The notes: a model not told the origin generated them from the letters alone. Shown: positions 3,467 to 22,017, counted from the stretch's first letter. The stretch is 22,017 nucleotides of DNA from an uncultured virus (IMG/VR IMGVR_UViG_3300042367_000583) (IMGVR_UViG_3300042367_000583:62001-84017); one strand, 5' to 3'. Numbers and translations are program-made.

Positions 3467-5728
3467 TTAGACGATCGTTGCTAGTGATTCTTTAAAAGGC
3501 ACTGGATAGCTTGAATTTTGAAAAACCCGTACTGTGTAAGCCGATTGGATTGATCCCCAATCGGCTATCTGTTGCGATTCTGTGTAAACGACGCTTCGGG
3601 CTGACGATACTGACCATTCTCGTTTTACTGTGGACTCGTCGTAAATTCTGACTACATAGCTGTTCAATTCTCCTGCTGCGTAAGCAATATCGATATAGTC
3701 GATCCAACGACCATTTAACCGCGTCCGTCGATACCAAGTAATAATTAAATCGTTGTTATCTTTTTCCCCTCTTACAGCACAAGGGAAAGGCTTTAATCCT
3801 TCTAAAGTAATTGTGTGAGCAGTCTCGTCTTCTATATCAGTTTCAAGTAGTCCATTAGGGACTACTTTTAATAAATATTCTCGATTAATATCAGAAAGAT
3901 TTAAAGGGAGTCGAACTAAATAATTAGTTAGTAGCACAAATTTTTCCCCTATTATATGCTTAGAGATAGCTGGTTCAGTTCCTTTGACTCCACGAATTGT
4001 ATATGAAATATCAAAAATTAAAGGATTGCTAGACACAATAGCAGCATTTTTAAAAGCTATAATTTCTCCAGTAGAAAACCAACCTAATTGTTTGCCCGAT
4101 AGAAATGTTTCAAGAGTAACTGGCTCTAATTGCCCTGAATTCATACTTATTCGTATCCAATTTGAATCGTCAATAAAACTAGGAGAGGCGTTGTTAAAAT
4201 TTGGGGAAAAGCTCAATACAGTACCAGTTACGCTGTTGACAACATTGCCAACAGCAAAATCATAGCTTAATCCGTTGTCATCAGAATAAAATAATGCTCC
4301 TTTCCTAAAACTAGAGTTACCTTCAATTGCCACATAAATTCCTATGTCTGTATCTCGGCTATTAACTATTGGGACTTCAATAGGAATAGCGTTAGCGCGT
4401 CCGTAGGGACGAGGAGTGTTATTGTCTGGCGGAAATTCGTTATCTATAGGAATATCTGGTAAATATCCTACTCCTTGAAATCGAGTAGCTTCAATTTCAA
4501 TTAAATAATTTACGCCTCTTACTTTTTTGGTGATTTGCATCAATTCCTGATGATAATTGTTATTATCATTAGTAAAAATTACATCCCCAACTTTCAGATT
4601 TTCCCATGCTGGCAATAAAAGCATTTTTGAAAAAGTTTTTGATTGCGTTTTCCCTAAAAAAAGAATTTTTGAGGCAATATTCATGAAAAACATATCTATA
4701 TCTATTAGTTTAGTTTGAAAGCTAAGCTCGTTTGTGTGAGTATCTGATGGGTCTTTAGCTACTACGGTAATAGTTTCATAATTTTTTAAAACATTTAGCC
4801 CAGATACTGTAACGGCACTAGGAGTTTCTCTAAAATGAGTCAGTTTTTTTTCATTAAGGTCAATAGGATTTTCTCCAAATTTTTTAGACCCAAAAGAGCT
4901 TTTAGGGATAAAAATAGGATCAGATGATTGTTCTTGTCTTTTAAAAATGATTTTATCTTTTGGCTCCCTTGCTACAATAAAAAAAGCTCTCATAAGTTCT
5001 TCTAACTGATCAGCAAAAGATGTCCCATCAAACAATAAATCAAATCCTTGAATTCGGTAATCATTAGGAATGTCAGTCACATCAATTTGATCGTCTGTTC
5101 TACCAGCTAATTTACAAATAGTTTTCAAAATATCTTTTATTTTTGGATTGTCTCCACTTTCTCCAATCACCTCAACATCAATAGCAGGAAATCCAGTGCC
5201 GTCATAATTAGCAATCGGATAATTATTAAAAAGTAAAAAAGACATTCCAGTAAAAGCAGGTACTGGGTTGGATTCTTTCGATTGAATAACAGAAGATGGC
5301 GTAGTTTGATTGCCAGTATAAATAGTTGTATGTTCAATAAATTTTAGGCTTTTTTCGTCGTTAGTTTCAGAATTGTAAACAAGGATGCTGTTCATCCAAA
5401 CTCGCCTAACAGAGCCAATTTTTCTGGCAATTGGATAAGCGGCTGTCAGAAAATAAGTGTAAACTTCGGTAGTTTGCCCACCACCACCACCTTTTCCGCC
5501 TTGTCTTTCGGAAGTGACGACTTCCTTAAGAGGAAGCCCCCACATCATAGTTAGCCCTTCTTTTCTCACCTTCCCAAAAGGATAGGATAGGCTTTTGCCG
5601 TATTCAGCATCGGGAACACCAGTATCCTCAATTCTTCCTTTTTGTTGAACAGGAGGTTTAGGAGCAAATAGAGATAATAATAGGTTAGCTCCGACTCCTA
5701 TTGCTATGGGAATGAGAAAATTAGCCAC
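3467..5728 (-). CDS. Phage tail tip/host-specificity protein (gpJ / GTA megatron-like, Phage-tail_3)
   Basis: 753 aa; YG..L.Y.FG.VR, GGKGGGG, I..VRRVW.N, PAF.G, GEIIAF, RGVKGT, W.RRTR motifs. Confidence 0.85.
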   Translation of the reverse strand: MANFLIPIAIGVGANLLLSLFAPKPPVQQKGRIEDTGVPDAEYGKSLSYPFGKVRKEGLTMMWGLPLKEVVTSERQGGKGGGGGQTTEVYTYFLTAAYPIARKIGSVRRVWMNSILVYNSETNDEKSLKFIEHTTIYTGNQTTPSSVIQSKESNPVPAFTGMSFLLFNNYPIANYDGTGFPAIDVEVIGESGDNPKIKDILKTICKLAGRTDDQIDVTDIPNDYRIQGFDLLFDGTSFADQLEELMRAFFIVAREPKDKIIFKRQEQSSDPIFIPKSSFGSKKFGENPIDLNEKKLTHFRETPSAVTVSGLNVLKNYETITVVAKDPSDTHTNELSFQTKLIDIDMFFMNIASKILFLGKTQSKTFSKMLLLPAWENLKVGDVIFTNDNNNYHQELMQITKKVRGVNYLIEIEATRFQGVGYLPDIPIDNEFPPDNNTPRPYGRANAIPIEVPIVNSRDTDIGIYVAIEGNSSFRKGALFYSDDNGLSYDFAVGNVVNSVTGTVLSFSPNFNNASPSFIDDSNWIRISMNSGQLEPVTLETFLSGKQLGWFSTGEIIAFKNAAIVSSNPLIFDISYTIRGVKGTEPAISKHIIGEKFVLLTNYLVRLPLNLSDINREYLLKVVPNGLLETDIEDETAHTITLEGLKPFPCAVRGEKDNNDLIITWYRRTRLNGRWIDYIDIAYAAGELNSYVVRIYDESTVKREWSVSSARSVVYTESQQIADWGSIQSAYTVRVFQNSSYPVPFKESLATIV

Positions 5729-6464: not shown

Positions 6465-7010
6465 TCATATTGGTTTTTGATTTTCTTGATTCTTTTGAGA
6501 TTCTTGCAAATTAAGAAGTTGAAGCATTGCTTCTCCTGCGTCTTTACGCGCCATGCTACAAGTCCAGAGTCTTTGTTGATTGCGCTTGATAATGATAATT
6601 TCTGTATTAGAAACTAAACAAACTAAATCATTTTTCTGTTTTATTAGCTGATTAATAGCTTCTATTCGTTGCTCCTGTTCTAGTTGGGAAACGGGTTGGA
6701 GTTTTTCTCCATACTCTTGTGTAGAGAAAATAACGGCTAACATAAAACTTTTTGTTTCTTTAAACTGAAAACGAATAATCTGCCAACTAAATTCACCATC
6801 AGGCTCTAATTCTCGATTCCAAATATTTAGAAAGGTTTCTAAATAACCTTCTAATCCTTTTTGAGTTTGACGGTTTTTATTAATATCACTGAAAAGTCCT
6901 TGATGCTGTTGAGGATAGTTTTCAACAGGTTTTACTGACTCACTATCTTGAATAGAGCAAGAATGACAAGAATTAAATGGAAACATAAAGGGCATATTGT
7001 TTGCTATCAA
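6465..7010 (-). CDS. Protein resembling the C-terminal domain of N-6 DNA methylase/type IIG-like RM enzymes (stand-alone fragment)
   Basis: YLETFL..WN.EL...G.F...; IIIKRN..RLWT.SMAR.DA.EAM; no SAM-binding or NPPY motifs. Confidence 0.5.
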   Translation of the reverse strand: MIANNMPFMFPFNSCHSCSIQDSESVKPVENYPQQHQGLFSDINKNRQTQKGLEGYLETFLNIWNRELEPDGEFSWQIIRFQFKETKSFMLAVIFSTQEYGEKLQPVSQLEQEQRIEAINQLIKQKNDLVCLVSNTEIIIIKRNQQRLWTCSMARKDAGEAMLQLLNLQESQKNQENQKPI

Positions 7011-7057
7011 GATATTAGGAAAGTTTAATAATTTGTTACAGATTAACTATATTAGAT

Positions 7058-7372
7058 TTATTCTCTGTAAAAATTAAGATCACACCAAAAGGAATCTTTC
7101 CAAAAATTTATCAATTGTATATTTTTTTCAGCTATTAATTTTCGCCAAAGACGAAAATTCTCAAAAAAATTATACCATCCAAAAGGAACATCTTTTCTAA
7201 GGGTAGTCCAAATAATAGGTAAATAGCTGTTGATAGGTTTATAAAGTTTGTTACAAACATAAATATAAAAACCAAGAGACAAAGTGTAAAACAACCCTTT
7301 GGTGATTAACATAAATCCCCATACAGAAATTAAAAACAAATTCAAGATTAAGGCTATCGGTTTTATTTTCAT
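7058..7372 (-). CDS. Hypothetical membrane protein
   Basis: 104 aa, hydrophobic N-terminus, ATGA overlap with upstream gene. Confidence 0.65.
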   Translation of the reverse strand: MKIKPIALILNLFLISVWGFMLITKGLFYTLSLGFYIYVCNKLYKPINSYLPIIWTTLRKDVPFGWYNFFENFRLWRKLIAEKNIQLINFWKDSFWCDLNFYRE

Positions 7373-7563
7373 TTTTGACCTTTAATAGATTTTAAAGTTA
7401 TTACTATGCTAGTTACACAAAAAAGCCAAACATACCAAAATTTAAAAAGCAATTCTGTTTCTGTTAAATGTAAATGAATGAATCTAATACCGAAAATTAT
7501 ACAAGTATTAAAACTCATGACAGCAATCAAAAGGTAATAGTTTATTTGTTTAGTCTTTTTCAT
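7369..7563 (-). CDS. Small 2-TM membrane protein, paralog of 7582..7794
   Basis: 64 aa; YLL.AV...IR...L.LT..EL...FWY.WL shared. Confidence 0.7.
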   Translation of the reverse strand: MKKTKQINYYLLIAVMSFNTCIIFGIRFIHLHLTETELLFKFWYVWLFCVTSIVITLKSIKGQK

Positions 7564-7581
7564 GTCTTAATAGTCTTGACT

Positions 7582-7794
7582 TTATTTAAATCCTACCACT
7601 TGTTTTACATTTAATTTTTGAAAAGTTAATCCTAAACAAAATGCAAACCAAAGCCAAATATACCAAAACCTGAGAAACAACTCCGACCATGTTAGCTGTA
7701 AGTTGTTAAGTCTTATGGCAGTAAATACACAGGTAAAAATAATTAAATTTACAGCCACTAATAAATAAGGTTTTTTCTGTTTTTTAGACTTCAT
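7582..7794 (-). CDS. Small 2-TM membrane protein, paralog of 7369..7563
   Basis: 70 aa; basic N-terminus, two hydrophobic segments. Confidence 0.7.
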   Translation of the reverse strand: MKSKKQKKPYLLVAVNLIIFTCVFTAIRLNNLQLTWSELFLRFWYIWLWFAFCLGLTFQKLNVKQVVGFK

Positions 7795-7843
7795 TTTAGT
7801 TTAATCTTTTTAGGTGTTCTATATTACTTTACCACAATTAAAG

Positions 7844-8041
7844 TTATTTGTCTATAGTTTTGACAAGAAAATAAATTAAATTTATCTTTTCCGATGTCAG
7901 TGTTTTGATTTTTATTAAGATTTCTACTAATTTATCCTTAAGTTCTTTTTTAGTGGGTTCTGTGTTAGTTGGTTCATAGATAAAAGTTTTAGCACTCCCA
8001 TCTTGTTCTATTTTAGTCAAAGTGTATTTTTCCATGATCAT
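7844..8041 (-). CDS. Hypothetical protein
   Basis: 65-aa co-oriented ORF. Confidence 0.55.
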   Translation of the reverse strand: MIMEKYTLTKIEQDGSAKTFIYEPTNTEPTKKELKDKLVEILIKIKTLTSEKINLIYFLVKTIDK

Positions 8042-8064
8042 AGTGCCTTTTTTTAGGTGTAGGT

Positions 8065-8520
8065 TTATCTTAATATATCTAGCCCTCGATTTCTGATTTT
8101 TTGAGCAAGGTCTTTATTAAATACTTTTGATTTTTTAATCACAGTAATCTGATTGCTTGGCCAGTATTCTAGCAGAAAATCAACGAGTTCTATTGAAGTT
8201 GTGTGTATTCTAGCTTCTTTGCTACATCCTTTTAGTAATTGGTAAAAAAGAAATAGTCCACTAAGCAGGTCTTTTTCAATTACCCAAAATACTAATTTAA
8301 TTAATGTATTGCTAAGTCGCCAGTGTTTTAGAAGTTGGCATAGTTTTGTCTCTTCTAATTGCCAGTAACTGAAAAAATCCAAAACATTAGAGATTACTGG
8401 GTAGTCGCTTCTATTTACAAAGTCAGATACTAGAGCATCGATTGCTTCTAGAGATTGACACATCCCGATAGATGCAATCGATAATCCCTCTAATTTATAT
8501 CCTGAGATAATTTGTAGCAT
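8065..8520 (-). CDS. Hypothetical protein
   Basis: 151-aa ORF starting 20 nt past the array trailer. Confidence 0.65.
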   Translation of the reverse strand: MLQIISGYKLEGLSIASIGMCQSLEAIDALVSDFVNRSDYPVISNVLDFFSYWQLEETKLCQLLKHWRLSNTLIKLVFWVIEKDLLSGLFLFYQLLKGCSKEARIHTTSIELVDFLLEYWPSNQITVIKKSKVFNKDLAQKIRNRGLDILR

Positions 8521-8540
8521 GGTTTTGGAGTTTTGTTTTG

Positions 8541-9011
8541 TTTTCCTGCCTTAGTAAGGCTTAAGCTTAATTGCTTCGCCCACTGCTTAAATGCTTCCCA
8601 GTCGGTTTCATCGTTTCAATCCCTAATAAGGCTTAAGCTTAATTGTTTCATAAATGAGATTAGCAAGGAAAAATGGTGCTTAAGGTTTCAATCCTTAATA
8701 AGGCTTAAGCTTAATTGCTTCGATAACTAATGCCTATATCAAAGATGAAGATCAGCGTGTTTCAACCCCTAATAAAGCTTAAGGTTAATTGCTTCAAGAT
8801 CAGAAAACCCCTCACAGTTATCAGTACGCGTTTCAATCCCTAATAAGGCTTAAGGTTAATTGCTTCGATTTCGATAAAGAATCAGCGCAGGAGGAATTAC
8901 TTGTTTCAATCCCTAATAAGGCTTAAGGTTAATTGCTTCAATTTGGATCGCTGTACCCAAAAATCGAATTCGAAGTTTCAATCCCTAATAAGGCTTAAGG
9001 TTAATTGCTTC
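8541..9011 (-). CRISPR. CRISPR array: 7 repeats of 37 nt, 6 spacers of 34-37 nt
   Basis: Consensus (minus) GAAGCAATTAACCTTAAGCCTTATTAGGGATTGAAAC; repeats start at 8541 (degenerate), 8613, 8685, 8759, 8830, 8903, 8975; mutations accumulate toward the 8541 trailer. Confidence 0.98.
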
Positions 9012-9280
9012 CCATCTTCCTTTAGCCCTTGATGTAAAAGGGTTTCGGGTAAGGATTGCGCCCCATTCGCTAAAATTTAGTTTTCAAGGTTCTGCTTGGT
9101 TCAAAAAATCAGGCTAGTAAATCCCAGATCGTAAGCTGGTCGGGGTTTCTGGGGATTGCGCCCCGTGATTTTTTGGAACTTCGCTTAGATGCCTTATTAG
9201 GTAAGGCTTTCGGGTTATTTATGCCGTGGCTATCCTCGCACGGCTGAGGTGGGGCGGAAGAAAAAATAAGGGATTGCGAG
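9012..9280 (-). promoter_or_regulatory. CRISPR leader, overlapping the last ~57 codons of the Cas gene
   Basis: GGATTGCGCCCC at 9053 and 9153 (100 bp apart), GGATTGCG at 9271; repeated CCCGAAA-[C/G]CCTT-N7-AAGG motifs (minus); CTCGCA/TGCGAG inverted pair at 9235/9275. Confidence 0.6.
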
Positions 9281-10992
9281 TCATTCTCGGACTGAGTGAG
9301 GGTGCGATTCCCTTCCTGCTTCATCTGCTTACTAATCGAGTGTTCGGCATTCTCTATCGGCGCGTCCCCAATAGACTCTTGATTTGCATCAAGATCAGGC
9401 GTGAATTCCCTCGCTAAACCGAGGTATTTTCCAATCATAGAGACAGGAAACTTGATTAAAGAGGCGATCGCTCTTAAAAACTCATCTCGTAAGCCACGAA
9501 TCAGAATATTTGCGGCGGCATTCTGATCGGCGTGAGCTTCGTAACCACAGCTAACACATTTAAACTTCGATTGACTAACGCGGTTAGCTTTATCAATATT
9601 ACCACAATTGAAGCAAGTTTGTGAAGTATGTTTAGGATTAACTCGGATCACTTTTCTGCCACGTTCGTTAGCTTTATTTTCAATAAATGTGCGAAGTTGT
9701 CCAATAGCATTATCAAGTAATGCCTTATTTAATCCAGACTTTCTTTTTTTGCCATTTTGTTTATAACCATCGCCGTCTTCTCTTTCTTTAGGTTTTGCGG
9801 CGGCTGTCATGTTTTTTAGTTTTAAATCTTCTAAAATAACTGATTGATATTCGCTAGTTATTTTATGGGCTAATTGAGCATTTCTCCCTTTTCGCTGACG
9901 AGCAATTTTCTCGTGAACACGAGCGAGTTTAGCGTAGGTTTTACGCTGATTATTAGAGTTATCTTTTTGTCTAGAAGCTTGACGCTGTAATCGGTTAAGT
10001 CGCTTTTTCTGAATTTTTGCGTAGCGTTTAGCTTCCGATTGTCTCCCTAAGTCATCGGTAAATATTGCCACAGCACCCATATCTAAACCAACACATTTAT
10101 CGGATTCTTTATAGATCGTGTCGTCAGTTTCGATGGTTAGCTGTAAGTAATATCCCGTCGCTTTACGAGTAATTTTAGCCATTCGGGGAGCTTTCCCTTG
10201 CAATCGATCAATCCCCCGTACTTTTAGTAATCCTATCTTTGAGGAAACGATAACTCCATTAGATTCAATCTTTATAGTTTCAGGTTGACCGTTAACAAGA
10301 GTCTCTACCTTATCCCGTCTTCCTTTAAACTTAGGAATCCCACGGATACCTTTTTTAGCGGCATCATAAGCAGGTTTAATCACACTTCTAAAAAAGCCTT
10401 TTTTAAACTCTGTTTCAATTTCACCGATAAATTTTGCTGTATCTCCTCGAAAGTAAAAAGCAAGTTTCTCCCTGTTGAGATAATTAACAGCATCCTCGCC
10501 AATATTTTCGGCATTCATGAAACGACGGATAGGAATAGCATCTAAGGGAGTATATTCTTTTCCGTTGCTTGTCTTTTTAAAATAGGCGATTTTACAGCAA
10601 GGATTGCTGATTAAAAGTTCTTTCTCTTTATCTTTAAGGGTTTTAAACTCTTTTTCGTCGTAATCCCCAGAATAACTTAACTTCCATATTTCAGGGCTAA
10701 ACTCATCGAATTTATGTTTTTTGCGATAATATCTTTGTGTTGACTCCTCTTTGAGTGCGATTGAAAGATTCCATAGCAACTTACACGCCGCTAAAGAACG
10801 ATCAATCTCTGTGATTTGTTCTTTAGTAGGATGTATCTTAAATTCCAAGACTTCCATAGGAGATTTTTCTTCTTTTTTCTTAGGAGTCTTTTTGACAATA
10901 CTAAACCTTAGATGATTATCTTTAGAACTAGGTGTTTCTTGAATTTGGTACTCATCTACTTTAAGTTTGACTTTACTTTTTTTGGCTTTCAT
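9109..10992 (-). CDS. TnpB-derived type V effector (C2c8 / V-U2-like) RNA-guided nuclease
   Basis: IS605-OrfB HTH (FKIHPTKEQ...CKLLWN), RuvC-I VGLDMG, RuvC-II ILEDL, Zn ribbon CFNC/CVSC, RuvC-III ADQNAAANI; 627 aa; abuts the array; no tnpA. Confidence 0.85.
   Translation of the reverse strand: MKAKKSKVKLKVDEYQIQETPSSKDNHLRFSIVKKTPKKKEEKSPMEVLEFKIHPTKEQITEIDRSLAACKLLWNLSIALKEESTQRYYRKKHKFDEFSPEIWKLSYSGDYDEKEFKTLKDKEKELLISNPCCKIAYFKKTSNGKEYTPLDAIPIRRFMNAENIGEDAVNYLNREKLAFYFRGDTAKFIGEIETEFKKGFFRSVIKPAYDAAKKGIRGIPKFKGRRDKVETLVNGQPETIKIESNGVIVSSKIGLLKVRGIDRLQGKAPRMAKITRKATGYYLQLTIETDDTIYKESDKCVGLDMGAVAIFTDDLGRQSEAKRYAKIQKKRLNRLQRQASRQKDNSNNQRKTYAKLARVHEKIARQRKGRNAQLAHKITSEYQSVILEDLKLKNMTAAAKPKEREDGDGYKQNGKKRKSGLNKALLDNAIGQLRTFIENKANERGRKVIRVNPKHTSQTCFNCGNIDKANRVSQSKFKCVSCGYEAHADQNAAANILIRGLRDEFLRAIASLIKFPVSMIGKYLGLAREFTPDLDANQESIGDAPIENAEHSISKQMKQEGNRTLTQSENDSQSLIFSSAPPQPCEDSHGINNPKALPNKASKRSSKKSRGAIPRNPDQLTIWDLLA
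9260..9430 (-). ncRNA. Candidate omegaRNA-derived tracrRNA scaffold inside the Cas gene 3' end
   Basis: IS605-like motifs TACCTCGG..GGGAATTCACGCCTG (9426-9396) and GATGAAGCAGGAA (9325-9313), then anti-repeat-like CAATCCCTTAT followed by a T-run. Confidence 0.4.
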
Positions 10993-11019
10993 GGATCGAC
11001 CTTCCTTTATTCTTATCTA

Positions 11020-11049
11020 AATCTACCATAAGCTTTATAGAAATGTCAA
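11020..11049 (-). promoter_or_regulatory. Promoter of the Cas gene
   Basis: TTGACA-N18-TAGATT with TG extension; near-copy at 11472-11501. Confidence 0.65.
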
Positions 11050-11058
11050 GTAAGAAGT

Positions 11059-11427
11059 CTAAAGATTTTTTGGGATACCAGTTCCCACATCAGAACCTAT
11101 AGCCCAACCCTTATAAAAGTTAAAGGCGGTAGTATCAATATAGAGGGGAAAACCTAAAGCTTCCCAGCAGTATAATAGTCTTAGTACATCAACAGTCTGA
11201 ACCGTATAATTTGATCCTGATTCAGTGATGATAAATTTTTCAAAAATCTCTGGGGCAACTAGAACAGAACAATAGTTAGTGTCGTTAAATTTACCAGACT
11301 TTTTGGCTAATTCAGAAGTAATTGCGATCAAAATCTCTTTTGTAAGTAATCTTTCTTGCAATATATTGCAACTATCTAAGTTAGTCCAAGCGGTAAATTT
11401 AACATAATTAGATCGGGAATTAAACAT
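11059..11427 (-). CDS. Hypothetical protein
   Basis: 122-aa ORF between the two promoter copies. Confidence 0.7.
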   Translation of the reverse strand: MFNSRSNYVKFTAWTNLDSCNILQERLLTKEILIAITSELAKKSGKFNDTNYCSVLVAPEIFEKFIITESGSNYTVQTVDVLRLLYCWEALGFPLYIDTTAFNFYKGWAIGSDVGTGIPKNL

Positions 11428-11471
11428 AACTTATAGTAGAAAAAGGTGCTAAACTATATTTGACTTACTTA

Positions 11472-11501
11472 AATCTACCATAAGCCTACTAGAAATGTCA
11501 G
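11472..11501 (-). promoter_or_regulatory. Duplicate promoter copy, overlapping the RHH start codon
   Basis: CTGACA-N18-TAGATT; shares taaatctaccataagc....tagaaatgtca with 11018-11048. Confidence 0.6.
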
Positions 11502-11635
11502 ATAAAAATTATTATCCTCTTAACGTCCGTACATCAGAATCAGAAGAGAAAAAGCTAAAAAACTACTGTAAAGCCCGGAAGCGGTCAATAACCGATGTAG
11601 TCCGGGAATTGATTAGAAGTTTACCCGATGACTGA
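11495..11635 (+). CDS. Ribbon-helix-helix (CopG/Arc-like) DNA-binding protein, 46 aa
   Basis: Not in ORF track. MSDKNYYPLNVRTSESEEKKLKNYCKARKRSITDVVRELIRSLPDD fits the RHH pattern. Confidence 0.8.
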   Translation: MSDKNYYPLNVRTSESEEKKLKNYCKARKRSITDVVRELIRSLPDD

Positions 11636-11664
11636 TACTCAAGGATGTTATTGGGATAGCTAAC

Positions 11665-11700
11665 ATTAAAAGTGCCAGTTCACAGACTGGCACTTTTAAT
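11665..11700. terminator. Bidirectional intrinsic terminator
   Basis: Perfect 15-bp inverted repeat ATTAAAAGTGCCAGT-tcacag-ACTGGCACTTTTAAT between convergent genes. Confidence 0.8.
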
Positions 11701-13035: not shown

Positions 13036-13470
13036 CTATGATTTTACCACTCCCGAAACAGGTACTCGATAAACCAGTACAGGCGGGTATTCATGAATAT
13101 AGGTCTTAATCACGCCATTTATTGAGTCAGCATGAATATACTCCCCATCTCCTAAATAGATGCCTACATGACCATTTATACCTGATTTACGGAAGACTAA
13201 AATATCTCCTTTATCTGGACTACCTTCTACTCTTGTCAAGATACCCTCAATAAATCTCACTAAGAAATTGTTCCGGGGAATCCGTTCGTAGTTTTCAATG
13301 ATGAAATCGTAAGGTAAAAACCCGACTTTAATCCCCACGCCAGCAATAAATCCTACACAATCGGTTCCAATCCCTTTAAGCGATTGTCCATGAAACCAAG
13401 GAGTACCGAGCCATTCAAGAGCTTCAGCAACGATTTGATTATCCAAAGAATCGTTTTTTAGTTCGTTCAT
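13036..13470 (-). CDS. NlpC/P60 tail-associated peptidase (gpK-like)
   Basis: WLGTPW.H.....G.GTDCVGF, GDILVF, GHVGIY.G.GEYIHA. Confidence 0.92.
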   Translation of the reverse strand: MNELKNDSLDNQIVAEALEWLGTPWFHGQSLKGIGTDCVGFIAGVGIKVGFLPYDFIIENYERIPRNNFLVRFIEGILTRVEGSPDKGDILVFRKSGINGHVGIYLGDGEYIHADSINGVIKTYIHEYPPVLVYRVPVSGVVKS

Positions 13471-16400
13471 TTTGTGTATTTTCCCGTTCTTTCAATTGAT
13501 TTAAACTATACCCCATGTCATTCCGTGATTCTACAGTCACGTTATTGGTGTTATTAATTACCAAAGACTGATTAGAGCTATTAGTATTTGAAGTTGTGGA
13601 GTAATTAGGTTTACCCCCGACAAATCCCCCATTAGCATAGTTCTTAATAGGAGCATTATTTCTGTACTCTAGATATGCTTCTGTTTCTTTAGGGGTAAGA
13701 ACCAATTCGCCTTCATTAGCTACGATCAAGCGAGGTTTTCGGCCTCCCGACATTGCTCGTTCACGCTGAAAAGCTGAAATGATATTTTTCTCTATCGGAG
13801 CATTGGCATCTCCAACTTTCCCGCCATCACTAAATAAGCTGAATCCTGTACCTAGAGAAAAGGCAGAAGCCGGAGCAGAAGCAAAGCTAGAGGCTCCTAT
13901 ACTACCAAGTGACCCAATCGAACCAAGTCCGCCTAGTCCCCCACTAAAAATCCCTGTTATTCCACTAAGTAGCCCGTTAAATAAGCCACCGCCGCCACCG
14001 CCACCAAAAATAGAAGAAAAGATGTTACCTACTGGTTTGAAGATACTGTTTAGAGCATTAGTGAAAAAGTTGCCTACTGGCCCGATGATTGCATTAAATA
14101 CTGACTCAAATGCCTGAGTTATTGGTTTAGTAAAACCATCGATAGCAGAAGTTAAAGCATCGATAGCAGGCTTAGTAATACCCTCGACAAATTTTGTCAT
14201 GATATTTAATCCAAGACTACTAAAAGCCGATCCTATTCCTTTTCCTTCTCTAATGTCAGAGAAAAAGCTTTCAGCTGCGCCACGATTCGGAGAGGCATCT
14301 AATGCTACTCGCTCTAATCTTAATTCTGCAAGTTTTTCCCATTCCGAGCGGATATTAGCCACATATTCAGCGTATTGTGGTAAGTCTTTGTAAGGTTCTA
14401 AATAATCCTCTAATTCCTCTTTTTCTTTTTGTAGGCTAATACGTTCGGCAAGGATAGCAGAATCATCAAATAAAGTCGGTCGAGACTGAAATTCTAGTTG
14501 CGTTCTTTGGATAGTTAAATCATTTAACCGATCACGGATACTCCTGACTGTATCTCTGGTTTTTCTAAATGATGCTTCTAAGGTAGCTACTCCCTGATTT
14601 TTGCCTAATTGTTCAATCGCTTGATCAAGAATTGCTACCTGTTCTTTAGCTAATTCAGCGTTTTTAGCTAAAACCTCGATACTATCTGTTATCTCTTTGA
14701 CAAATTCAGGGGGAAGAGCTATACCTTTTTCTTGAAATTCTCCTAAGATTTCTTTTATTGCGTCGCTGTATTTTTGTTGAGCGTCAGCATTTAAAAGTAA
14801 AGTCCGTCGCTGGTCTTCTAGTGATTCAATCTGAGAGCGATATTGTCGAGAGACTTCCGTGGCACTCTTGTTAATTTCTTCTTGTACTGTCAGATACCCT
14901 TTAGAGTTGATGGTCAAATCAGCGACATTTTCGGAAGCATCTCTTAAAGTACGTTCTAATGCACGGGCATCTTCCTCTTGCTGCCGTCTAAATTTTATTG
15001 ATCTGTCAAGAGCATTGTTTAGATTTTGTTGCTCTTCTAGCCGTCTTGAAAACTCCTCAGCGTTTTGGTTGGCTGTTTCAGCGTTGCGAATTTGATCAGC
15101 CGCTGCGCCAAGATTACCCGTAGGAAGATTGGGAACGGGAGGCAAATCAGGACCCTGGAAGTTAATCGGATTGTCTTTAAGAACCGGTGGTAAATCGGCA
15201 TCCCAGAAATTATCTTGATTTTGATTAGGTAGAGTCGGTAATTGGGCTATAGGTGGAGGACTACTAAATTCTGGACCGCCTTTTCCTTCTTTTGTTTCTT
15301 CTTTTGTTAAAACACGGGCAGGAGAAGGGTTAGAGGTGGAGTCTTTAATGGATTGGCTAATTGCATTAGTAGCATTAGTTATTATTTTTCGATTATTTAG
15401 TTGATTGCCGTTAATATTTGCATAAGCAGTTACAATATATTCTTTCCCATTAATGTTTACCAGTCCAACGTTACCAATAACTTTAGAGTTATTTCCAATT
15501 TTTCCGCCGATTTCATTATTATACTTAAAATTTCTTGTTTGTCTCAGAGATTGTTCAGCTAATTGACTTGCAGGATTTTGATTTTTAATTAAAGACTGCA
15601 TAGCTAACGTTACGTCTTGTGCTGTTGAAATGTTTGGAGTTCCACTGCCTGGTATATTTAAATACCTAGAAATAGTAGTGTTTTTATAACCTTCTTTTCT
15701 GGCTAATTCTGTAGCTTTGGTTAGCCCACCTAGCCGATCAATTAAAACATTAGTTGCCGTATTATCTGACTTTTCTAGCATTAGCTGTACTAGCTGTTCA
15801 ACTGTTTTAACTTGATTGGCTTTTAATTGTCCGTGTGGATCAACCAAAGGCAATTTTATGGCGATAGCGTCTTTTAAGGAAAGTTTTCCGCTTGTTATTT
15901 CTTTGGCAATCAAATCAGCAATAATAACTTTAATTGTACTAGCTGGTGACGCTGGGGGTGTTTGAGCGTTTTTAGAATATACAGTTTTTCCGCCAACTTC
16001 TTGAACTAAAACAGATTGAATATTTTTTGGTAATCTGTTGGTGATTTGTTGCTGAACTGATGGAGAAGGGTTAGGGGTGGAAGTTGATGGAGTGGGTAAA
16101 CCGCCTTGATTTCTTCTGATTTGTCGAATACGGTTTGATGCTCCGCTGTTAGCAGGATTGCCGTCATATCGCAGTGCGTCCAATTCGGATTGAGTACGGG
16201 GAGCATTGAGTTGATATTTTCGTAAAAACTGCTCGTAAACCTTTAACAGGTCTTCCATCCGCTTCATGCCTTGCCCGGGGTAATTAGCCCCTGGAAAAGA
16301 TGCCCATTCTTTGCGGGTTGCGTTAATTACCCCACGAATATCTCCTTTAAAAAGCTCGTCTAATCCACCTCTAAATAAAATACGGCTTAATGCGACTAAA

Positions 16401-19400
16401 TCTTGAGAGGCAGGAGAAAAATCTTTTAATCCTAATTTCGCTTTTTCTTCATCCCATGTAAAATCCATAATCTGGTATCTTCCAGATGCCGATGAAGTGG
16501 TCGATCCAAACGGGATTCTTTGTCGTGGATGGTCTGCAAAAGAACTAAATTGTCCATGTCCAAAAAGAGTGTTATATCCCTTATTTGGCATATTGAAAGT
16601 ACCTTCTGCGTAAGCAATAATATCAAGAAAGGCTTTGACGCGAGGATTGTTTAAATGCTGAGATAATTCTTGACCGCGTGGTGTTAACCCCTTGGGAATT
16701 GAAGACGACTGCGGCGGCGGTAAAAACCCTCCCCCATTCCACACAGGAGCAGGGGTGAAATTACTAGGTGCTGGTAGTATCAAACCTTCCTTAGCTTTTC
16801 TAATTGCCTCAGCAGTTTCCTCTATACTTTTTACTAAGTCTTCTCCAGAAGTCTTGATATTTGGGGGAATAGCTATTAACTCAGAATTGATTAATTTAAT
16901 CGGTTCTGGAAGTGTATTAAGATTTGTGACAATATCCTTGATTGATTGGGGAATAAAGCCTAATTCTTTATTGGTTTGTCGGATTAAATCAGCTAGAGTA
17001 CGATTGAGGTCTTCCTGAGTCCGTTTAATATCCTCAATCGTTCTTAGTCTATTTCTTTCAGCGTCTTGCTGTTGCTCTTGTAGATTACGGATATTTCTTA
17101 GGGTAGAGATATAGGAAGTTTCTATCTCCTCGGTTCGGGATTGGAAGGTGCGTCCGCGACTGGCAAGGTCAGCTTGGCCCTGTACAAATTCTAGGAAAAT
17201 GTCCCCTAGTTCTTTACCAGCGTCGCTTGTACCGGGTATTAATAAACGGTTTTTAACTTGCTGTACCCTGATTCTATCAGTCGTATCCAGTAACTGATTT
17301 TGGGCATTTAAGAGGTTCTTATCGAGTTCCCTGACTAAATCAATGTAACTTTCAGATAGGGAACGATTTTCTCTAAAAGCTGACAGTTGAGCATCTTCAA
17401 TCTGTCTTCTATAATCTTCAATCTGACGATTAAAGTCGATTATCTGACGGTCAAGGTTGCGGTAATAGTCTTGTATTTGTTCTTGCTGATCTCTTAAAGA
17501 TAGTTCGGTTTCAGCTATTTGCTGTGTGATATTTGCAATAGCTGTTTTTACTGCTAAAGGATCATCTACGTTTAATACTAATTTTTCTTGCTCTAAGGCT
17601 AATTGATTATAAAGAGCCGCTAAGTTTATCTTGGTTTGTTCCAGTCCGTAGCTAATATTTTGACTGGAGGAGGTTTTATTAGCTAGATTAGTGAGTTGTT
17701 CTGCTTTAACAATTTCTCCACTAGCTTGTTTTTCTTGTATTTGTCTTTTCTTTCTTTCGACAATAATCTCTCGACTAATTTGCTGAATTTCTCTCTCAGC
17801 GTTTAAAATATCTCGTCGAGCGGTTGCGTATTCTTTAGCCTGATTTAAAATATTTCTTAAAGCGGCGTTATCTTTTAGGTCAGATTCGTACTGATCCATT
17901 ATTTGCTGAATAGCATCAGGAGAGAGTAAATTTTCAGCAATTGCTTCACCAAAGCTCGCTACATTTAGCTGTTTTAAGTCTTCTTTAAAGTAAGTGCTTA
18001 AAACTTTATTGGCAGATTTAGATAGCCTTTCGTTTAAAGTATTAGAGATAGAGTTAGCTGAATTTTCTAAAGTGGCGATACGCTCTTTAGCAGTCTGTAA
18101 GCTTTCTTCTTGAACTTTAACATTAAACTGAAATTCATTAATTTTCCCTGATGCAAATTGTTGATTTAATCCAATTGAACGACTTAAACTATTTCCTTCA
18201 TTGGCAAAATTAGCATTAGCTCTTGTTCTTATAGCAAGATCAAAGGCAACTTGTAATTTTCTATATTCTTTTTCTTGGTCTTTCAAGACTTGTAGATAAT
18301 CTTGTTCCGCTTTTTTTAAGTAACCAATTATAGTCACGAGGTCTTTTTTACGTTGTATGTAAGCAATGTCAGTTATATCTCTATTCTTAAAGCTTTGCTC
18401 TAACGATGCTAACGCTATCTCATATTGCTGAAGGTCGGCAGTAATTCTTGACCCAACGGGACCTAACTGTTTATTAATTAGCTCCTGTTCTCGCTTCATT
18501 AAATTCTGCTCTTGCTGGTTAAATTCAGATACAGATCGGTCGTTTCCTTCTGTGCTTGCAATTGTTCTTTCTGCTCTAACTAAAGCTAAATTATTTCTGA
18601 TTTCTTGTAATTCAGATGAAAATTGTTTGCTACCTGAAAAATTAGATAAAGTGTCTTGATATTCTTTGAGATTTCCGACTCCAGTAGCCAGAGATTTATC
18701 AATGTTTTCTAGTCCTTGTCGTAATTCTAATAGTGACATAAGCCATTTAGAATTATAAACAAGCCCTAGTGTTAGAACATTAAAAAACTTTTCTCCTCCA
18801 GACAATTCCATATCAGGCAAAAAGCTTGTTAAGCCTTTGCGATTACTGTTATCGGTTTTGTTTTGCCAAACATCAAGAGCTTTTTTAGACTCTTCTAGGG
18901 TTCTTACAGCTTGTTTTAGTTCTTCGCTACCAGCATTTAATGCGTTATAAACAAATTGAATACCAGTTATCACCGCAGTAGGGATAGCCAATGCTTTAAT
19001 TAATCCTATTCCTGCTAAAGTAGCAAGGTTTATAGATACTTTTAATTTACCCATGGCTGTAGCTGTAGATAGAGATGCTACTCCGGCAACTTGTAAGGAT
19101 GCACTCATAGCAGCGCTGGCAACGGCTCCTAACCGACCCGCTGCCGCAAATTGCATGACTGATTTTCCTAAGAATCCCATGACTGACAGTAACCCTGCGG
19201 CTCCCACTGATGCCACAGTCCCTAGATTGTCATTCAAGGTACTCAAGACGGCATTTAATGCCTGTAAAGCAGGGTAAGCGGCTACTCCAATTTTTTCCCC
19301 TAACTGCATTTGAAGCTGTTCGGTATTGTTCTGGAATCGAGAGATTTCCGATTGTAAAGTTTCGGTAGAAAGAGAAAGACCTCCGGCACTCATCCGTTTA

Positions 19401-22017
19401 TATTCAGCCGCTAACCGAGGTAAAACATCTTGTACTAAGAGATTGCCTGCTGATGCTTGTTGATAAAATTGAGCAGTGGTCAGCCCTATTGATCGGGCGG
19501 CTACATTTAAAGCGTCGTTTAACCCTCCTGACTCGCTCAATTGCTGTGTGAATTCTTCAACGGAAACAACAGCTTTAGAGGCTATTTGCCCGATAGCTCT
19601 AAAAGATTCAGCTTGTTGTTGGGCATTGGTTTGTCGCGCTGCTAATGCCTCTTGGAATCCTTCAAAAATATTATCTGCCTGCGCTTGTAGTGGAGAATCA
19701 GTAGTAATTAATTTGAATCTGCTATAAGCAATAGCGGATTCTTTAAAGGATATTCCTAATTTGTCAGCCCTTGCCACTAAAGCGTCAAGAGATTGTTCTA
19801 CGTTGCCTACACCGGCAAGATTTAAATTTAATTTAATTCTTTGTAGCTCAGTAAAAGCAAGTAAAGAATCAGTAACAGCTTGTTGAATCCTAAAAGGAAT
19901 ATCGTCAATAGCAAAAAGTAGAGGTCGCAATAAAAATTCTGCTCCTTTGAAAAGAGCAAATCCCCCAATTGCCGCCATAGCACCTTTACGAAGATTGATC
20001 ATACCTCCTGTAGCGGCATTAAGTTCTTGGTCGAGAGTTCTGAGTGCTTTGCCACCAACCGAGAGGAAATTAATAAATCCGTCCGCTTGGGCAATAGCAG
20101 CTTTTAGTCCGCTCACAATGCCGTCTGTAAAGCCATTAGAAACGCCCGCTTTTTCAATACTATCGAGAGCGTTAAAAATGTTGTCTCGTTTTTTATTCCA
20201 GTCGTCAAGAATTTCTTCTCTTGTTGTTTTTGGACGAGCGATGACGGTAGCTCGCTTCATCACTTGAAAAGCGCGGGGAGAAGCGAAAATTCCCGTGTTC
20301 ATCGAGCCTTGAATCTCGTTGATAACCGCTAGGCGTTCCCCTCGGTCTAGTCCCATTTCTTTAACAGCTTGAAGAATCGCTTTTCGGGCTTCTTTTGACC
20401 TCGTCCCGACAAAAAAAGTAAAATCGCTTACCTCTTTATCGAATTGAGTCTCTAGCCTTAATCCGAAGCGAATATGACGCGCCCCTAACGCTAATCCTTC
20501 ATAAAAAAACCGCATTGCTTTCATCGCTTTTTTAGATGGCGAAGCATTCCCCAATCCCTTATTTGTTGCATCAACTATTTCAATTGCAGTTTGATAGGCT
20601 ATTCTTTTGGCATCGTCGCTGTTTACTCCTATTTCTAAACCTTTCTCAAAATTATTGGCTCCTGCTTTACCAGCAACAAACATTAGTTCTGACATATCAG
20701 CGCCGATTGATTTAACAATTGTTCGCAATTTTGACTGTTCGTCAAGGAGTAATGCGCTTAACTCAAAAAATACATCTTTTTTCTGTTTGCCGCTAATTAT
20801 AGATTCCCAAGCTTTATACAACCTTTCAAATTCTGCAATGTTTTGCTTAAGGCTCCCTGGTATTATTCTTTCTTGTGCCATTTTGTCATTGCCAAGCATT
20901 TTATCAAAATCACTAGCATCAGGTTTGTTTACTAGAATAGTGTCATGCAATTCTACTCCTTTCTGCGAAGCTAGTTCTATTACATCATTTTCAAAAGGTT
21001 TGGCGGTATGGCGATTATCTCCCCCTTGATTACTCCACCCAAAAGCTCCTGCTCCCGTTAAAAGAAAATCGTCCCACAATTGTCCTTCTACACCATAAGT
21101 GAACTTATCTTTCGGTCGTTCACCTATTTTATGTTTTTTGAAAAATTCTGGAATATTTACATCTTTTAAATATTCGCGAGTTTCATGATAGCGGCCTTGC
21201 CCACCTCCACGGTATTCCCCAGTTTTGTCATAGTGGCTGTATTCACTTGCACCACGTCCAAAGGAAGCTAGGCTGTCACCAGGATGGAGAAACATTTTAT
21301 CGGGATTAAATAACCCTTCTAAAGCTACTGGCTCAAAACCTCCGTAATTATAGACCGCCAATCCTGTTTCTGGTTGTGTTCGTGGAAAAGCGTTTCCTTT
21401 CCAGACACCGTCTCCAATGAATTTATTAGATGCGTTTTGATGCCACAACCCGTAAATAGGATTGACATTGCTAGAAATATCATCAGGTCGCATCTGAGAT
21501 TCAAATTCTTGCCTTAATCCTCTGTCTTTATTGCTATTAGGATGTAAAGCTTGATAACCATCTTCTAAAATACTTTCTAGATGTTCTCTTTTGGCATAAA
21601 TTAAAAATTTTGCGTCTTGTTTTTGATTAAGTTGCAATCGTTCATTTACGTCTTGAAGAAACTTATCAAAAAATTGTACATACAATTTTGCTTGTTCTTT
21701 TGTTCCTATTTCAAGCCCTCTTATCAAATTTCTACCCGCTTCTTTACCTTTCCAAGATGGTGAAGCATTCCCCAGTCCTTTATTTGTTGCGTCGATAATT
21801 CCAATTGCAACATCTAAAGCGTATTTTTCGCTATTATTATTTTGTAATCCAATATTTAACCCCTTAATATAATTTAACCCAGACTGTTTGCCATCACTGG
21901 AAAACATCGAACTAATCGCTTCAAGGTTTTTTGCGAATACTGGAACGCCAGCACTTAAAGAAGATGCAATAACTTCAATGAGTTTGCGTCCGTAAATATT
22001 GTACTTTTCTTCTATAT
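13439..22017 (-). CDS. Tape measure protein (>2850 aa, 5'-partial) with lysozyme and beta-lactamase-fold domains
   Basis: Frame open from 21907 to the right edge; tape-measure motif (QIASK..VS.EE..QQLSE), coiled coils, GLGNASPS repeats, C-terminal A.GG.VG and NEGELVL motifs. Confidence 0.92.
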   Translation of the reverse strand, partial: IEEKYNIYGRKLIEVIASSLSAGVPVFAKNLEAISSMFSSDGKQSGLNYIKGLNIGLQNNNSEKYALDVAIGIIDATNKGLGNASPSWKGKEAGRNLIRGLEIGTKEQAKLYVQFFDKFLQDVNERLQLNQKQDAKFLIYAKREHLESILEDGYQALHPNSNKDRGLRQEFESQMRPDDISSNVNPIYGLWHQNASNKFIGDGVWKGNAFPRTQPETGLAVYNYGGFEPVALEGLFNPDKMFLHPGDSLASFGRGASEYSHYDKTGEYRGGGQGRYHETREYLKDVNIPEFFKKHKIGERPKDKFTYGVEGQLWDDFLLTGAGAFGWSNQGGDNRHTAKPFENDVIELASQKGVELHDTILVNKPDASDFDKMLGNDKMAQERIIPGSLKQNIAEFERLYKAWESIISGKQKKDVFFELSALLLDEQSKLRTIVKSIGADMSELMFVAGKAGANNFEKGLEIGVNSDDAKRIAYQTAIEIVDATNKGLGNASPSKKAMKAMRFFYEGLALGARHIRFGLRLETQFDKEVSDFTFFVGTRSKEARKAILQAVKEMGLDRGERLAVINEIQGSMNTGIFASPRAFQVMKRATVIARPKTTREEILDDWNKKRDNIFNALDSIEKAGVSNGFTDGIVSGLKAAIAQADGFINFLSVGGKALRTLDQELNAATGGMINLRKGAMAAIGGFALFKGAEFLLRPLLFAIDDIPFRIQQAVTDSLLAFTELQRIKLNLNLAGVGNVEQSLDALVARADKLGISFKESAIAYSRFKLITTDSPLQAQADNIFEGFQEALAARQTNAQQQAESFRAIGQIASKAVVSVEEFTQQLSESGGLNDALNVAARSIGLTTAQFYQQASAGNLLVQDVLPRLAAEYKRMSAGGLSLSTETLQSEISRFQNNTEQLQMQLGEKIGVAAYPALQALNAVLSTLNDNLGTVASVGAAGLLSVMGFLGKSVMQFAAAGRLGAVASAAMSASLQVAGVASLSTATAMGKLKVSINLATLAGIGLIKALAIPTAVITGIQFVYNALNAGSEELKQAVRTLEESKKALDVWQNKTDNSNRKGLTSFLPDMELSGGEKFFNVLTLGLVYNSKWLMSLLELRQGLENIDKSLATGVGNLKEYQDTLSNFSGSKQFSSELQEIRNNLALVRAERTIASTEGNDRSVSEFNQQEQNLMKREQELINKQLGPVGSRITADLQQYEIALASLEQSFKNRDITDIAYIQRKKDLVTIIGYLKKAEQDYLQVLKDQEKEYRKLQVAFDLAIRTRANANFANEGNSLSRSIGLNQQFASGKINEFQFNVKVQEESLQTAKERIATLENSANSISNTLNERLSKSANKVLSTYFKEDLKQLNVASFGEAIAENLLSPDAIQQIMDQYESDLKDNAALRNILNQAKEYATARRDILNAEREIQQISREIIVERKKRQIQEKQASGEIVKAEQLTNLANKTSSSQNISYGLEQTKINLAALYNQLALEQEKLVLNVDDPLAVKTAIANITQQIAETELSLRDQQEQIQDYYRNLDRQIIDFNRQIEDYRRQIEDAQLSAFRENRSLSESYIDLVRELDKNLLNAQNQLLDTTDRIRVQQVKNRLLIPGTSDAGKELGDIFLEFVQGQADLASRGRTFQSRTEEIETSYISTLRNIRNLQEQQQDAERNRLRTIEDIKRTQEDLNRTLADLIRQTNKELGFIPQSIKDIVTNLNTLPEPIKLINSELIAIPPNIKTSGEDLVKSIEETAEAIRKAKEGLILPAPSNFTPAPVWNGGGFLPPPQSSSIPKGLTPRGQELSQHLNNPRVKAFLDIIAYAEGTFNMPNKGYNTLFGHGQFSSFADHPRQRIPFGSTTSSASGRYQIMDFTWDEEKAKLGLKDFSPASQDLVALSRILFRGGLDELFKGDIRGVINATRKEWASFPGANYPGQGMKRMEDLLKVYEQFLRKYQLNAPRTQSELDALRYDGNPANSGASNRIRQIRRNQGGLPTPSTSTPNPSPSVQQQITNRLPKNIQSVLVQEVGGKTVYSKNAQTPPASPASTIKVIIADLIAKEITSGKLSLKDAIAIKLPLVDPHGQLKANQVKTVEQLVQLMLEKSDNTATNVLIDRLGGLTKATELARKEGYKNTTISRYLNIPGSGTPNISTAQDVTLAMQSLIKNQNPASQLAEQSLRQTRNFKYNNEIGGKIGNNSKVIGNVGLVNINGKEYIVTAYANINGNQLNNRKIITNATNAISQSIKDSTSNPSPARVLTKEETKEGKGGPEFSSPPPIAQLPTLPNQNQDNFWDADLPPVLKDNPINFQGPDLPPVPNLPTGNLGAAADQIRNAETANQNAEEFSRRLEEQQNLNNALDRSIKFRRQQEEDARALERTLRDASENVADLTINSKGYLTVQEEINKSATEVSRQYRSQIESLEDQRRTLLLNADAQQKYSDAIKEILGEFQEKGIALPPEFVKEITDSIEVLAKNAELAKEQVAILDQAIEQLGKNQGVATLEASFRKTRDTVRSIRDRLNDLTIQRTQLEFQSRPTLFDDSAILAERISLQKEKEELEDYLEPYKDLPQYAEYVANIRSEWEKLAELRLERVALDASPNRGAAESFFSDIREGKGIGSAFSSLGLNIMTKFVEGITKPAIDALTSAIDGFTKPITQAFESVFNAIIGPVGNFFTNALNSIFKPVGNIFSSIFGGGGGGGLFNGLLSGITGIFSGGLGGLGSIGSLGSIGASSFASAPASAFSLGTGFSLFSDGGKVGDANAPIEKNIISAFQRERAMSGGRKPRLIVANEGELVLTPKETEAYLEYRNNAPIKNYANGGFVGGKPNYSTTSNTNSSNQSLVINNTNNVTVESRNDMGYSLNQLKERENTQNERTKKRFFG

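Follow-up and report, generated by a model that had tools for sequence, protein, structure and literature searches.

A V-U2 CRISPR locus on a Microcystis siphophage

The stretch analysed here, hereafter the window, is 22,017 nt long and represents bases 62001-84017 of an 84,017-bp virus record in IMG/VR (IMGVR_UViG_3300042367_000583; CheckV completeness 92%). The source genome is an 84-kb Microcystis siphophage, and the window contains a CRISPR locus, in which a TnpB-like effector gene, c2c8, is followed by an array. By its sequence the effector is a type V-U2 (C2c8) protein with intact RuvC and zinc-ribbon motifs. Counted from the first base of the window, the principal features are as follows.

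9109..10992, minus strand: c2c8 effector gene, 627 aa, with a core (residues 48-500), a lysine-rich and poorly constrained N-terminal extension (1-47) and a C-terminal tail (501-627)
10081..10083, minus strand: RuvC-I aspartate D304, by motif alignment
9829..9831, minus strand: RuvC-II glutamate E388, by motif alignment
9526..9528, minus strand: RuvC-III aspartate D489, by motif alignment
9547..9615, minus strand: zinc ribbon with cysteines C460/C463/C479/C482, by Pfam and motif reading
9012..9108, minus strand: leader, from the c2c8 stop codon to repeat 1, with hardly any variation among 11 distinct relatives
8541..9011, minus strand: CRISPR array, seven 37-nt repeats separated by six spacers (34-37 nt), with repeats decaying as the distance from the effector grows
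8975-9011, 8903-8939, 8830-8866, 8759-8795, 8685-8721, 8613-8649 and 8541-8577, minus strand: repeats 1 to 7

The 627-aa protein, the RuvC triad, which we take from established knowledge of TnpB and Cas12 to be catalytic, and the four cysteines of the zinc ribbon are all present, as the original prediction for this DNA had stated. Pfam recognises an OrfB_IS605 domain (E 1e-15) and a Cas12f1-like TNB domain (E 3.1e-22), and the NCBIfam model NF038192 (V_cas_c2c8) covers residues 48-470 with 465.7 bits against a cut-off of 350. The protein falls below the cut-offs of IS200_TnpB (141.1 versus 425 bits) and IS607_TnpB (74.6 versus 350), and also under that of the Cas12f2 family model, while a near relative carries the NCBI name Microcystis C2c8. 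Its RuvC and zinc-ribbon core is that of Cas12f and TnpB (9nzq, 8bf8 and others; E 6.7e-25 to Cas12f 9nzq), the DxG and ADxNAAxNI motifs aligning with solved Cas12f 9nzq and also matching solved TnpB chains; it differs from these in a larger N-terminal part and in its association with an array that has class-1-like repeats.

PHROGs and the source annotations label the effector a transposase, as would be expected of an ordinary transposon TnpB that happens to adjoin an array, but we find this scarcely credible. The family scores lie on the C2c8 side of every cut-off just given, the 84-kb genome has a single copy of c2c8, the array is kept in all relatives, and six-frame searches of five records (the studied phage plus four relatives, of which three are 90% complete or more) returned no Y1 TnpA. 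The same searches found no Cas1, Cas2, Cas4 or Cas6 (two models) in any of the five. The claims that the protein is not an ordinary IS605 TnpB, and that adaptation genes and tnpA are absent, were thus both upheld. The V-U2 system of this phage is very probably functional.

The array and its I-D-like repeat

The array is on the effector strand, downstream of the effector, and the gap between the c2c8 stop codon (9109) and the end of repeat 1 (9011) is 97 bp; a seven-repeat array at this distance, set among phage genes, is what had been predicted. Counting from the effector side, the first three repeats are perfect, the next three have two mismatches each and the last has seven. Seventeen IMG/VR loci encode the same C2c8 protein at 90-99% identity and all 17 keep an array downstream of it, which bears out the expectation that homologues would retain one. 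It is kept too on plasmid NZ_CP025929.1 of M. aeruginosa and on two contigs that were binned in a Crocinitomicaceae metagenome-assembled genome; these contigs have the same array and are probably phage.

The phage repeat closely resembles DR1, the repeat of Microcystis I-D arrays (sequence from PMC4428289, Table 3, also PMC6930136): the two are of equal length and identical at 31 of 37 positions, with an exact match over the last (3') 16 nt and differences at positions 2-4, 12, 18 and 21. The I-D-like repeat of the original prediction therefore stood up to comparison with the host repeat. The locus is nonetheless not a host I-D array, for the repeats agree at 31 of 37 positions only, I-D cas genes are absent and the leaders have only a 12-mer in common. 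The repeat is unrelated to that of the V-U2 system of Aphanizomenon phage vB_AphaS-CL131 (hereafter CL131) and to that of a second C2c8 system in sibling phages described below, save for a 3' GATTG.AA, although repeat type is no formal criterion of subtype V-U2. The repeats of CL131 and of the sibling second array end in GATTGCAAG or GTTGGCAAG, and DR1 ends similarly in GATTGAAAC; this resemblance may explain how a repeat of I-D type came to be adopted.

Scanning JGI metagenomes with DR1 produced 57 array loci and 1121 unique spacers, of which 131 match the studied phage, 82 of them over at least 30 nt at 90% identity or more. These matches identify Microcystis as the host and show that its I-D system heavily targets the phage. 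The same repeat found one contig in IMG/VR, and the DNA from 8400 to 11700 had no matches among GenBank phages. Since the host targets the phage this heavily, six of the 131 spacers falling inside c2c8 itself, the array might be thought to serve chiefly as a decoy, an RNA anti-CRISPR (Racr) or mini-array that soaks up host I-D proteins; repeat-mimic RNAs are known (PMC10651486) and repeat look-alikes occur in Microcystis myophages. However, a decoy has no need of changing spacers, of matches to rivals flanked by a protospacer-adjacent motif (PAM) or of an adjoining intact nuclease, and the arrays here, which stand beside an effector and range from 4 to 25 repeats across relatives, are unlike a Racr or viral mini-array, which consists of one lone repeat or of very few and is unaccompanied by a cas gene. 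We rate the decoy as very improbable.

Polarised turnover and recombination of arrays

Among sister phages, spacers at the effector end are private and those at the far end are held in common. Loci L009, L011 and L012 have their last three spacers in common, and L009 and L012 their last six, while two, ten and four effector-end spacers are private to L009, L011 and L012 respectively; the window array has only its last spacer in common with L008, L019, L010 and L020. The common far-end spacers, and the degeneration of the repeat at that end, place the leader on the effector side and indicate ongoing, polarised gain, so that comparison of related phage arrays agrees with the leader-end acquisition that had been predicted. 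Spacers in the window and 19 related loci measure 33-37 nt, mostly 34-36, and I-D adaptation yields spacers of about 35 nt (PMC10212523). The leader also includes the following motif.

9081..9092, minus strand: 12-nt motif GAACCTTGAAAA, also in the host I-D leader, by alignment

The phage leader has it in common with the I-D leader found most often in the host, at an alignment score that was reached by 2 of 1000 shuffles.

Recombination has left its own traces. The array of L015 falls into two blocks that differ in their repeat variants, as recombination would leave them, and in several metagenome contigs (L064, L053 and L079, which are mutually identical, L087 and L051) the array is chimeric: the tail of c2c8, its leader and one V-U2 repeat or two are followed, via a chimeric repeat, by DR1 repeats. 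These come from separate assemblies and differ in their crossover points, and the stretches that the two kinds of array have in common, 7 and 16 nt, would be too short to produce them as assembly joins. The c2c8 upstream of the L064 array is 94% identical to the studied effector; those upstream of L087 and L053 are about 45% identical in the core and about 84% in the tail. The DR1 spacers of L064 match the studied phage, so this copy is probably located off-phage.

These chimeric arrays, with their junction repeats, and the blocks of L015 favour a proposal in which homologous recombination with plasmid V-U2 or host I-D arrays is the main source of renewal for the phage array, any integration taking place on copies in plasmids or chromosomes, which are long-lived. 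In its favour, too, the effectors of plasmid and phage hardly differ, and a lytic cycle may be short for adaptation. Yet single private spacers occur at the effector end between identical repeats, and in the 57 host arrays there was no block of phage spacers, only two partial overlaps. Host I-D adaptation would, moreover, still be required somewhere, and the proposal modifies more than it replaces the explanation we prefer, that new spacers are inserted in trans by host I-D proteins. Recombination as the principal means of renewal seems to us rather unlikely.

Spacer targets and their flanking sequences

The window and 19 loci together provide 84 unique spacers, for which protospacers were accepted at 80% identity or more across the full spacer, with L015_6 and L016_3 merged as one site. 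Ten of the 84 have full-length matches, at 81-97% identity and at nine sites, in p1, a 6,987-bp plasmid of M. aeruginosa NIES-2549 (NZ_CP026286.1), and one matches a sibling phage. The match of the window array is this:

8867..8902, minus strand: spacer 2, a 35/36 match to a site in the 3' tail of the sibling phages' second C2c8 gene

Sibling phages L016 and L017 have a second V-U2 system (6896-8581 and 8578-9643) directly past their first array. Its C2c8 is a protein of 561 aa (369.7 bits against NF038192), the stop codon of which lies inside the first of 15 repeats of its own; these are different from ours and 36 nt long. The core of spacer 2 is present in 31 IMG/VR contigs, several from the same phage family, where the site has the 5' flank GTC in 24, GCT in six and GTT in one, and the second-system array was found in all 31. 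The studied phage has neither the target site nor the second system. A match in the reverse direction is provided by a spacer of a sibling second array (contig of L141), which agrees at 37 of 37 positions with bases 4008-4044 of the studied phage genome (5' flank AAAAT), and one of 22 spacers in the array of a NIES-2481 plasmid matches the phage family. On the strength of these matches, those targets that could be identified belong to mobile elements that share the host and are rivals there. The predicted aim at competing elements is borne out to that extent; the other part of that claim, cutting by the phage's own nuclease, is presumed.

Outside its array the studied phage has no match to any of the 84 spacers, barring one of 19 nt at chance level. 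The cores of window spacers 1, 3 and 4 each had no match in IMG/VR, and a search of GenBank phages and PLSDB with the window array (E up to 1) gave repeat look-alikes and no spacer matches. Only repeat-like matches were obtained between the L015 array and two Microcystis myophages, and the Microcystis plasmid stretches L119, L120 and L121 gave only partial matches of 14-18 nt, which were not counted. Two of these plasmids, NZ_CP046059.1 (L119) and NZ_AP024566.1 (L120), are heavily matched by host I-D spacers from metagenomes (74 and 38 respectively), and neither has a convincing V-U2 spacer match.

When flanks were counted, with an L013_5 match (14 mismatches in 35) excluded, GTC was present at 6 of 12 distinct protospacer sites of V-U2 arrays. 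For host DR1 spacers the same pipeline gave GTC 52, GTT 52 and GTA 4 among 161 protospacers, that is, GTH at 108 of 161, and the PAM of M. aeruginosa I-D is 5'-GTH-3' (PMC7648086; PMC10212523).

A GTC flank is thus also the I-D interference PAM, and the 3' 16 nt of the repeat, including an 8-nt handle ATTGAAAC, equal those of DR1, with the hairpin kept by means of one G-U pair. Host Cas6d might then cut the phage CRISPR RNAs (crRNAs) for use by the I-D Cascade against rivals, instead of or besides C2c8, much as has been discussed for the Cas-less array of cyanophage N-1 (PMC6293099). Against this, the array is fixed next to an intact C2c8 in all the relatives and in the plasmid copy. Six repeat positions are, besides, consistently unlike DR1 and several variants weaken the stem, while the canonical V-U2 end GATTGCAAG is itself near GATTGAAAC, such that the 3' end may serve C2c8. 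We think use by Cascade improbable and retain C2c8 as the presumed recipient of the crRNAs.

The DUF3987 replication protein of the targeted 7-kb plasmid (L035 658-2613) is about 33% identical to a primase-helicase-like protein of the phage (genome 39237-41114). Relatives of this plasmid protein in IMG/VR turned out not to be plasmids, but the phages' own primase-helicase genes, at 32-49% identity.

A candidate scaffold RNA

TnpB has a guide scaffold whose coding sequence overlaps the 3' end of its gene, and in the locus described here the c2c8 tail and leader have features that suggest a scaffold RNA.

9012..9430, strand not assigned: probable scaffold region (tracrRNA-like or omega-RNA-like; tracrRNA, trans-activating crRNA) with conserved hairpins, three CGCAATCC motifs and a rise in GC

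GC content, 37.5% in the genome overall, climbs to 51% across 9125-9424. When 11 distinct relatives are compared, variable sites at the three codon positions number 54/25/157 in the core (48-500) and 17/17/23 in the tail (501-627), and codons with an amino-acid change stand to those with synonymous change only as 70 to 133 in the core and 32 to 13 in the tail. One hairpin of the tail and leader alternates between CCTCG/CGAGG, CCCTG/CAGGG and CCCC/GGGG while the encoded residues change; a second has U-G, C-G or U-A at one pair. The remaining variation in tail and leader is in loops. In the curated structure 98.6% of cells pair, and four pairs have changed on both sides versus none or one in slid controls. 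Because the relatives' sequences are close, this covariation gives modest support.

The three CGCAATCC motifs are complementary to GGGATTG in the repeat, and in the RNAalifold structure one of them forms 8 bp with repeat 1. Metatranscriptome contigs over 8955-9509 have 10 to 1000 times the depth of gene-core contigs in all four runs, from four studies (in run X15, 118,896 at 9288-9398 versus 17-183 in the gene core), although assembled contigs give neither strand nor ends and contig depth is a poor measure of expression. Indications of the strand are divided. In a scan for anti-repeat duplexes the best energies, -25.3 and -24.9 versus -20.9 in the gene core, are on the strand opposite the effector, and terminator-like hairpins are found there too; the effector strand is favoured by the wobble pairs, and the sense strand has the CAATCC motifs.

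Phage CL131 has, about 170 nt upstream of its array (L007 ~7478-7517), a sense-strand stretch of 18 nt with 16 matches to an anti-repeat, and after it a further copy of the 3' end of the repeat. No tracrRNA was reported in the CL131 paper of 2018 (PMC6293099).

A model for the V-U2 module

Taken together, we consider it probable, though well short of certain, that the locus is a working type V-U2 (C2c8) module of a Microcystis siphophage, provided with spacers by the host and aimed at rivals. Under this model, host I-D Cas1-Cas2-Cas4 would insert new spacers in trans at the leader-repeat junction of the phage or plasmid, and part of the renewal would come about through recombination with other arrays. 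The array would be read from the effector side, and the crRNAs, along with a scaffold RNA encoded under the 3' tail of the gene and the leader, would load C2c8, which would then cut DNA bearing a match flanked by GTY. For the window array the target would be the second C2c8 locus of sibling phages, and for sister arrays the 7-kb Microcystis plasmid.

The original prediction that host Cas1-Cas2 updates the array receives indirect support, from the polarised turnover, the agreement of GTC at half of the sites with GTH in the host, the spacer lengths, the leader 12-mer and the chimeric arrays; it is qualified by the recombination route.

A number of results weigh against our model. Most spacers have no known target (73 of the 84 in the family, and five of the six in the window), and half of the 12 sites have flanks other than GTC, namely GCT, GCG, ATC, ATT, CAT and AAA. 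Phage and host leaders align over one 12-mer and nothing beyond it. The chimeric arrays demonstrate that recombination does occur and can renew arrays without any integration on the phage. Regarding the scaffold, four pairs changed on both sides are reached by 74 of 500 shuffles, the 469 nt of tail plus leader fold no better than shuffles (z -0.31), and the abundant contigs carry the first spacer of an L053/L087-type relative, not that of the studied phage. In the table of a 2024 review, V-U2 activity is unpublished (PMC11641405), and both spacer gain via host proteins and cleavage by C2c8 are steps that we infer.

Relation to known systems

Novelty is lower than had been claimed, since a locus of this kind is already known from CL131 and from a RefSeq c2c8 on plasmid NZ_CP025929.1, both of which came first. 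The phage-borne V-U2 system of CL131 was described in 2018 (PMC6293099; MG209611.1), and the parallels are these: a cyanobacterial siphophage, a C2c8-type effector that precedes an array of the same orientation, the absence of further cas genes, and an adjoining antirepressor gene. The effectors, however, are only 36.5% identical, the CL131 protein having 466 aa and no long tail, and its 36-nt repeat is unrelated to the one studied here. According to the same description, that repeat is unlike the I-D and III-B repeats of its host, and one weak spacer match is given (PMC6293099).

Plasmid p1 of M. aeruginosa NIES-2481 (NZ_CP025929.1) is another counterpart. Its RefSeq c2c8 encodes a near-identical 624-aa protein and agrees with the phage locus in tail and leader, the repeat is one mismatch from that of the phage, and a CopG/RHH (ribbon-helix-helix) gene is likewise divergent. 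This locus differs in its location, a plasmid of 147.5 kb on which a III-B system, cas1 and cas2 included, is encoded as well, in its 23 repeats and in lacking a 122-aa gene present in the phage. The III-B module (L121 8936-28518) contains two cas1 genes and one cas2, with a group II intron reverse transcriptase adjoining cas1.

Spacer supply by a host has a precedent on plasmids. Benz and colleagues, as cited in PMC11656645, are said to have shown experimentally, in 2024, that plasmid type IV-A3 systems acquire spacers in trans through host type I-E adaptation. As in those systems, we find a CRISPR locus on a mobile element, aimed at rivals, that lacks adaptation genes and has repeats that may be compatible with a host type I system; unlike them (class 1, on enterobacterial conjugative plasmids) it consists of a class 2 TnpB-like nuclease on a phage and would be paired with I-D, a link that is deduced. 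Cyanophage N-1 (PMC4916379), as described in PMC6293099, similarly has an array with host-kind repeats and no adaptation genes but, in contrast to the studied phage, has no effector gene at all.

V-U2 is not among the subtypes newly named in PMC10691335. A literature search, with subscription journals and supplements outside its scope, found no description of the Microcystis C2c8 module or its link with I-D. What is new here is the I-D-like repeat (31 of 37 positions), the effector-proximal turnover in arrays of 17 sister phages, GTC at 6 of 12 sites and the chimeric V-U2/I-D arrays.

Regulatory features and phage context

Upstream of c2c8 the module continues with a second gene, a duplicated promoter-like element and a divergent regulator.

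11020..11049, minus strand: TTGACA-18-TAGATT, a TG-extended promoter-like element immediately ahead of c2c8; first copy of a 45-nt direct repeat
11059..11427, minus strand: 122-aa gene between the RHH gene and c2c8, in 15 of 17 IMG/VR relatives and missing from the plasmid module
11472..11501, minus strand: second promoter-like copy, CTGACA-18-TAGATT, upstream of the 122-aa gene and overlapping the start of the RHH gene
11495..11635, plus strand: 46-aa RHH (CopG/ParG-like) gene, divergent from the module and conserved in phage relatives

The 45-nt element, which holds a near-consensus promoter, precedes the 122-aa gene as well as c2c8 and is otherwise nearly absent from the genome. A promoter scan gave 10 matches versus a shuffle mean of 10.0, and we take the duplicated element seriously because it is conserved. 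The RHH gene probably controls it ahead of both genes; on the Microcystis plasmid, too, a CopG gene adjoins c2c8. The 122-aa protein belongs to no Pfam or PHROG family, and its candidature as a glycosyltransferase DXD domain (Atlas score 0.90, 161 shared features) was rejected as being at chance level. With a regulator, a further gene under the duplicated promoter and a probable scaffold RNA in the locus, 'minimal', as the system was first described, is not an apt term.

Elsewhere in the window there are genes for a 2822-aa tape measure protein, a tail protein, NlpC/P60, Rha and RecT, and two transfer RNAs; the rest of the phage genome includes terminase, ribonucleotide reductase, helicase and endolysin. 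The tape measure protein (window 13439-21907, minus strand) has a lysozyme/endolysin-like stretch at about 1736-1923 and a beta-lactamase-family domain, PF13354, at residues 1966-2162. Small paralogues of PHROG 23556 stand three or four in tandem (window 3-308 plus genome 61445-62729). In L013, L014, L018 and L025 a gene of about 95 aa, with the motif VPFGWYNFFE.FR.W, lies between the last two far-end repeats (about 515 nt), and a 104-aa open reading frame of the window (7058-7372) has the same motif.

Repeat-like sequences are also found in Microcystis myophages. What is annotated in Ma-LMM01 as '56 bp repeat units' (NC_008562.1 ~35763-35942; L034 2997-3176) is a mini-array of three host-type I-D repeats, with A and not C as their last base, and two spacers, preceded by a consensus-like promoter; it may be a decoy or mini-array against host I-D. 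MaMV-CH01 (PP681321.1; L033 3007-3043) has a solitary V-U2-type repeat, with four mismatches to the phage repeat and eight to DR1, directly upstream of a small gene homologous to one found past the siphophage arrays; either a remnant of gene transfer or a candidate RNA anti-CRISPR could account for it. Further partial look-alikes occur elsewhere in these myophages.

Implications

V-U2 is among the last uncharacterised type V subtypes, with no activity, PAM or guide architecture in print, and this locus offers concrete leads: GTY as a candidate PAM, targets found in nature, a putative scaffold RNA for which there is evidence of expression, and a conserved regulator. It suggests that a TnpB-derived nuclease without adaptation genes may keep its array current by adopting the repeat of a resident class 1 system. 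Were this true, adaptation in trans, so far a matter of IV-A3 with I-E, would extend to a class 2 effector on a phage.

A broader picture is possible, though we are inclined to doubt it as a whole: a class 2 effector on phages and plasmids would have taken over the repeat, PAM and spacer supply of host I-D, with one adaptation machine common to the two systems and array segments swapped between them, in a three-way CRISPR war inside Microcystis. The host I-D system would then be set against the phage and its c2c8, the phage against the CRISPR locus of its siblings and small plasmids, and the sibling array against the phage in turn. For the ecology of blooms, the locus itself would add phage-phage and phage-plasmid CRISPR conflict to the known conflict between host and phage in Microcystis, a bloom-forming cyanobacterium.

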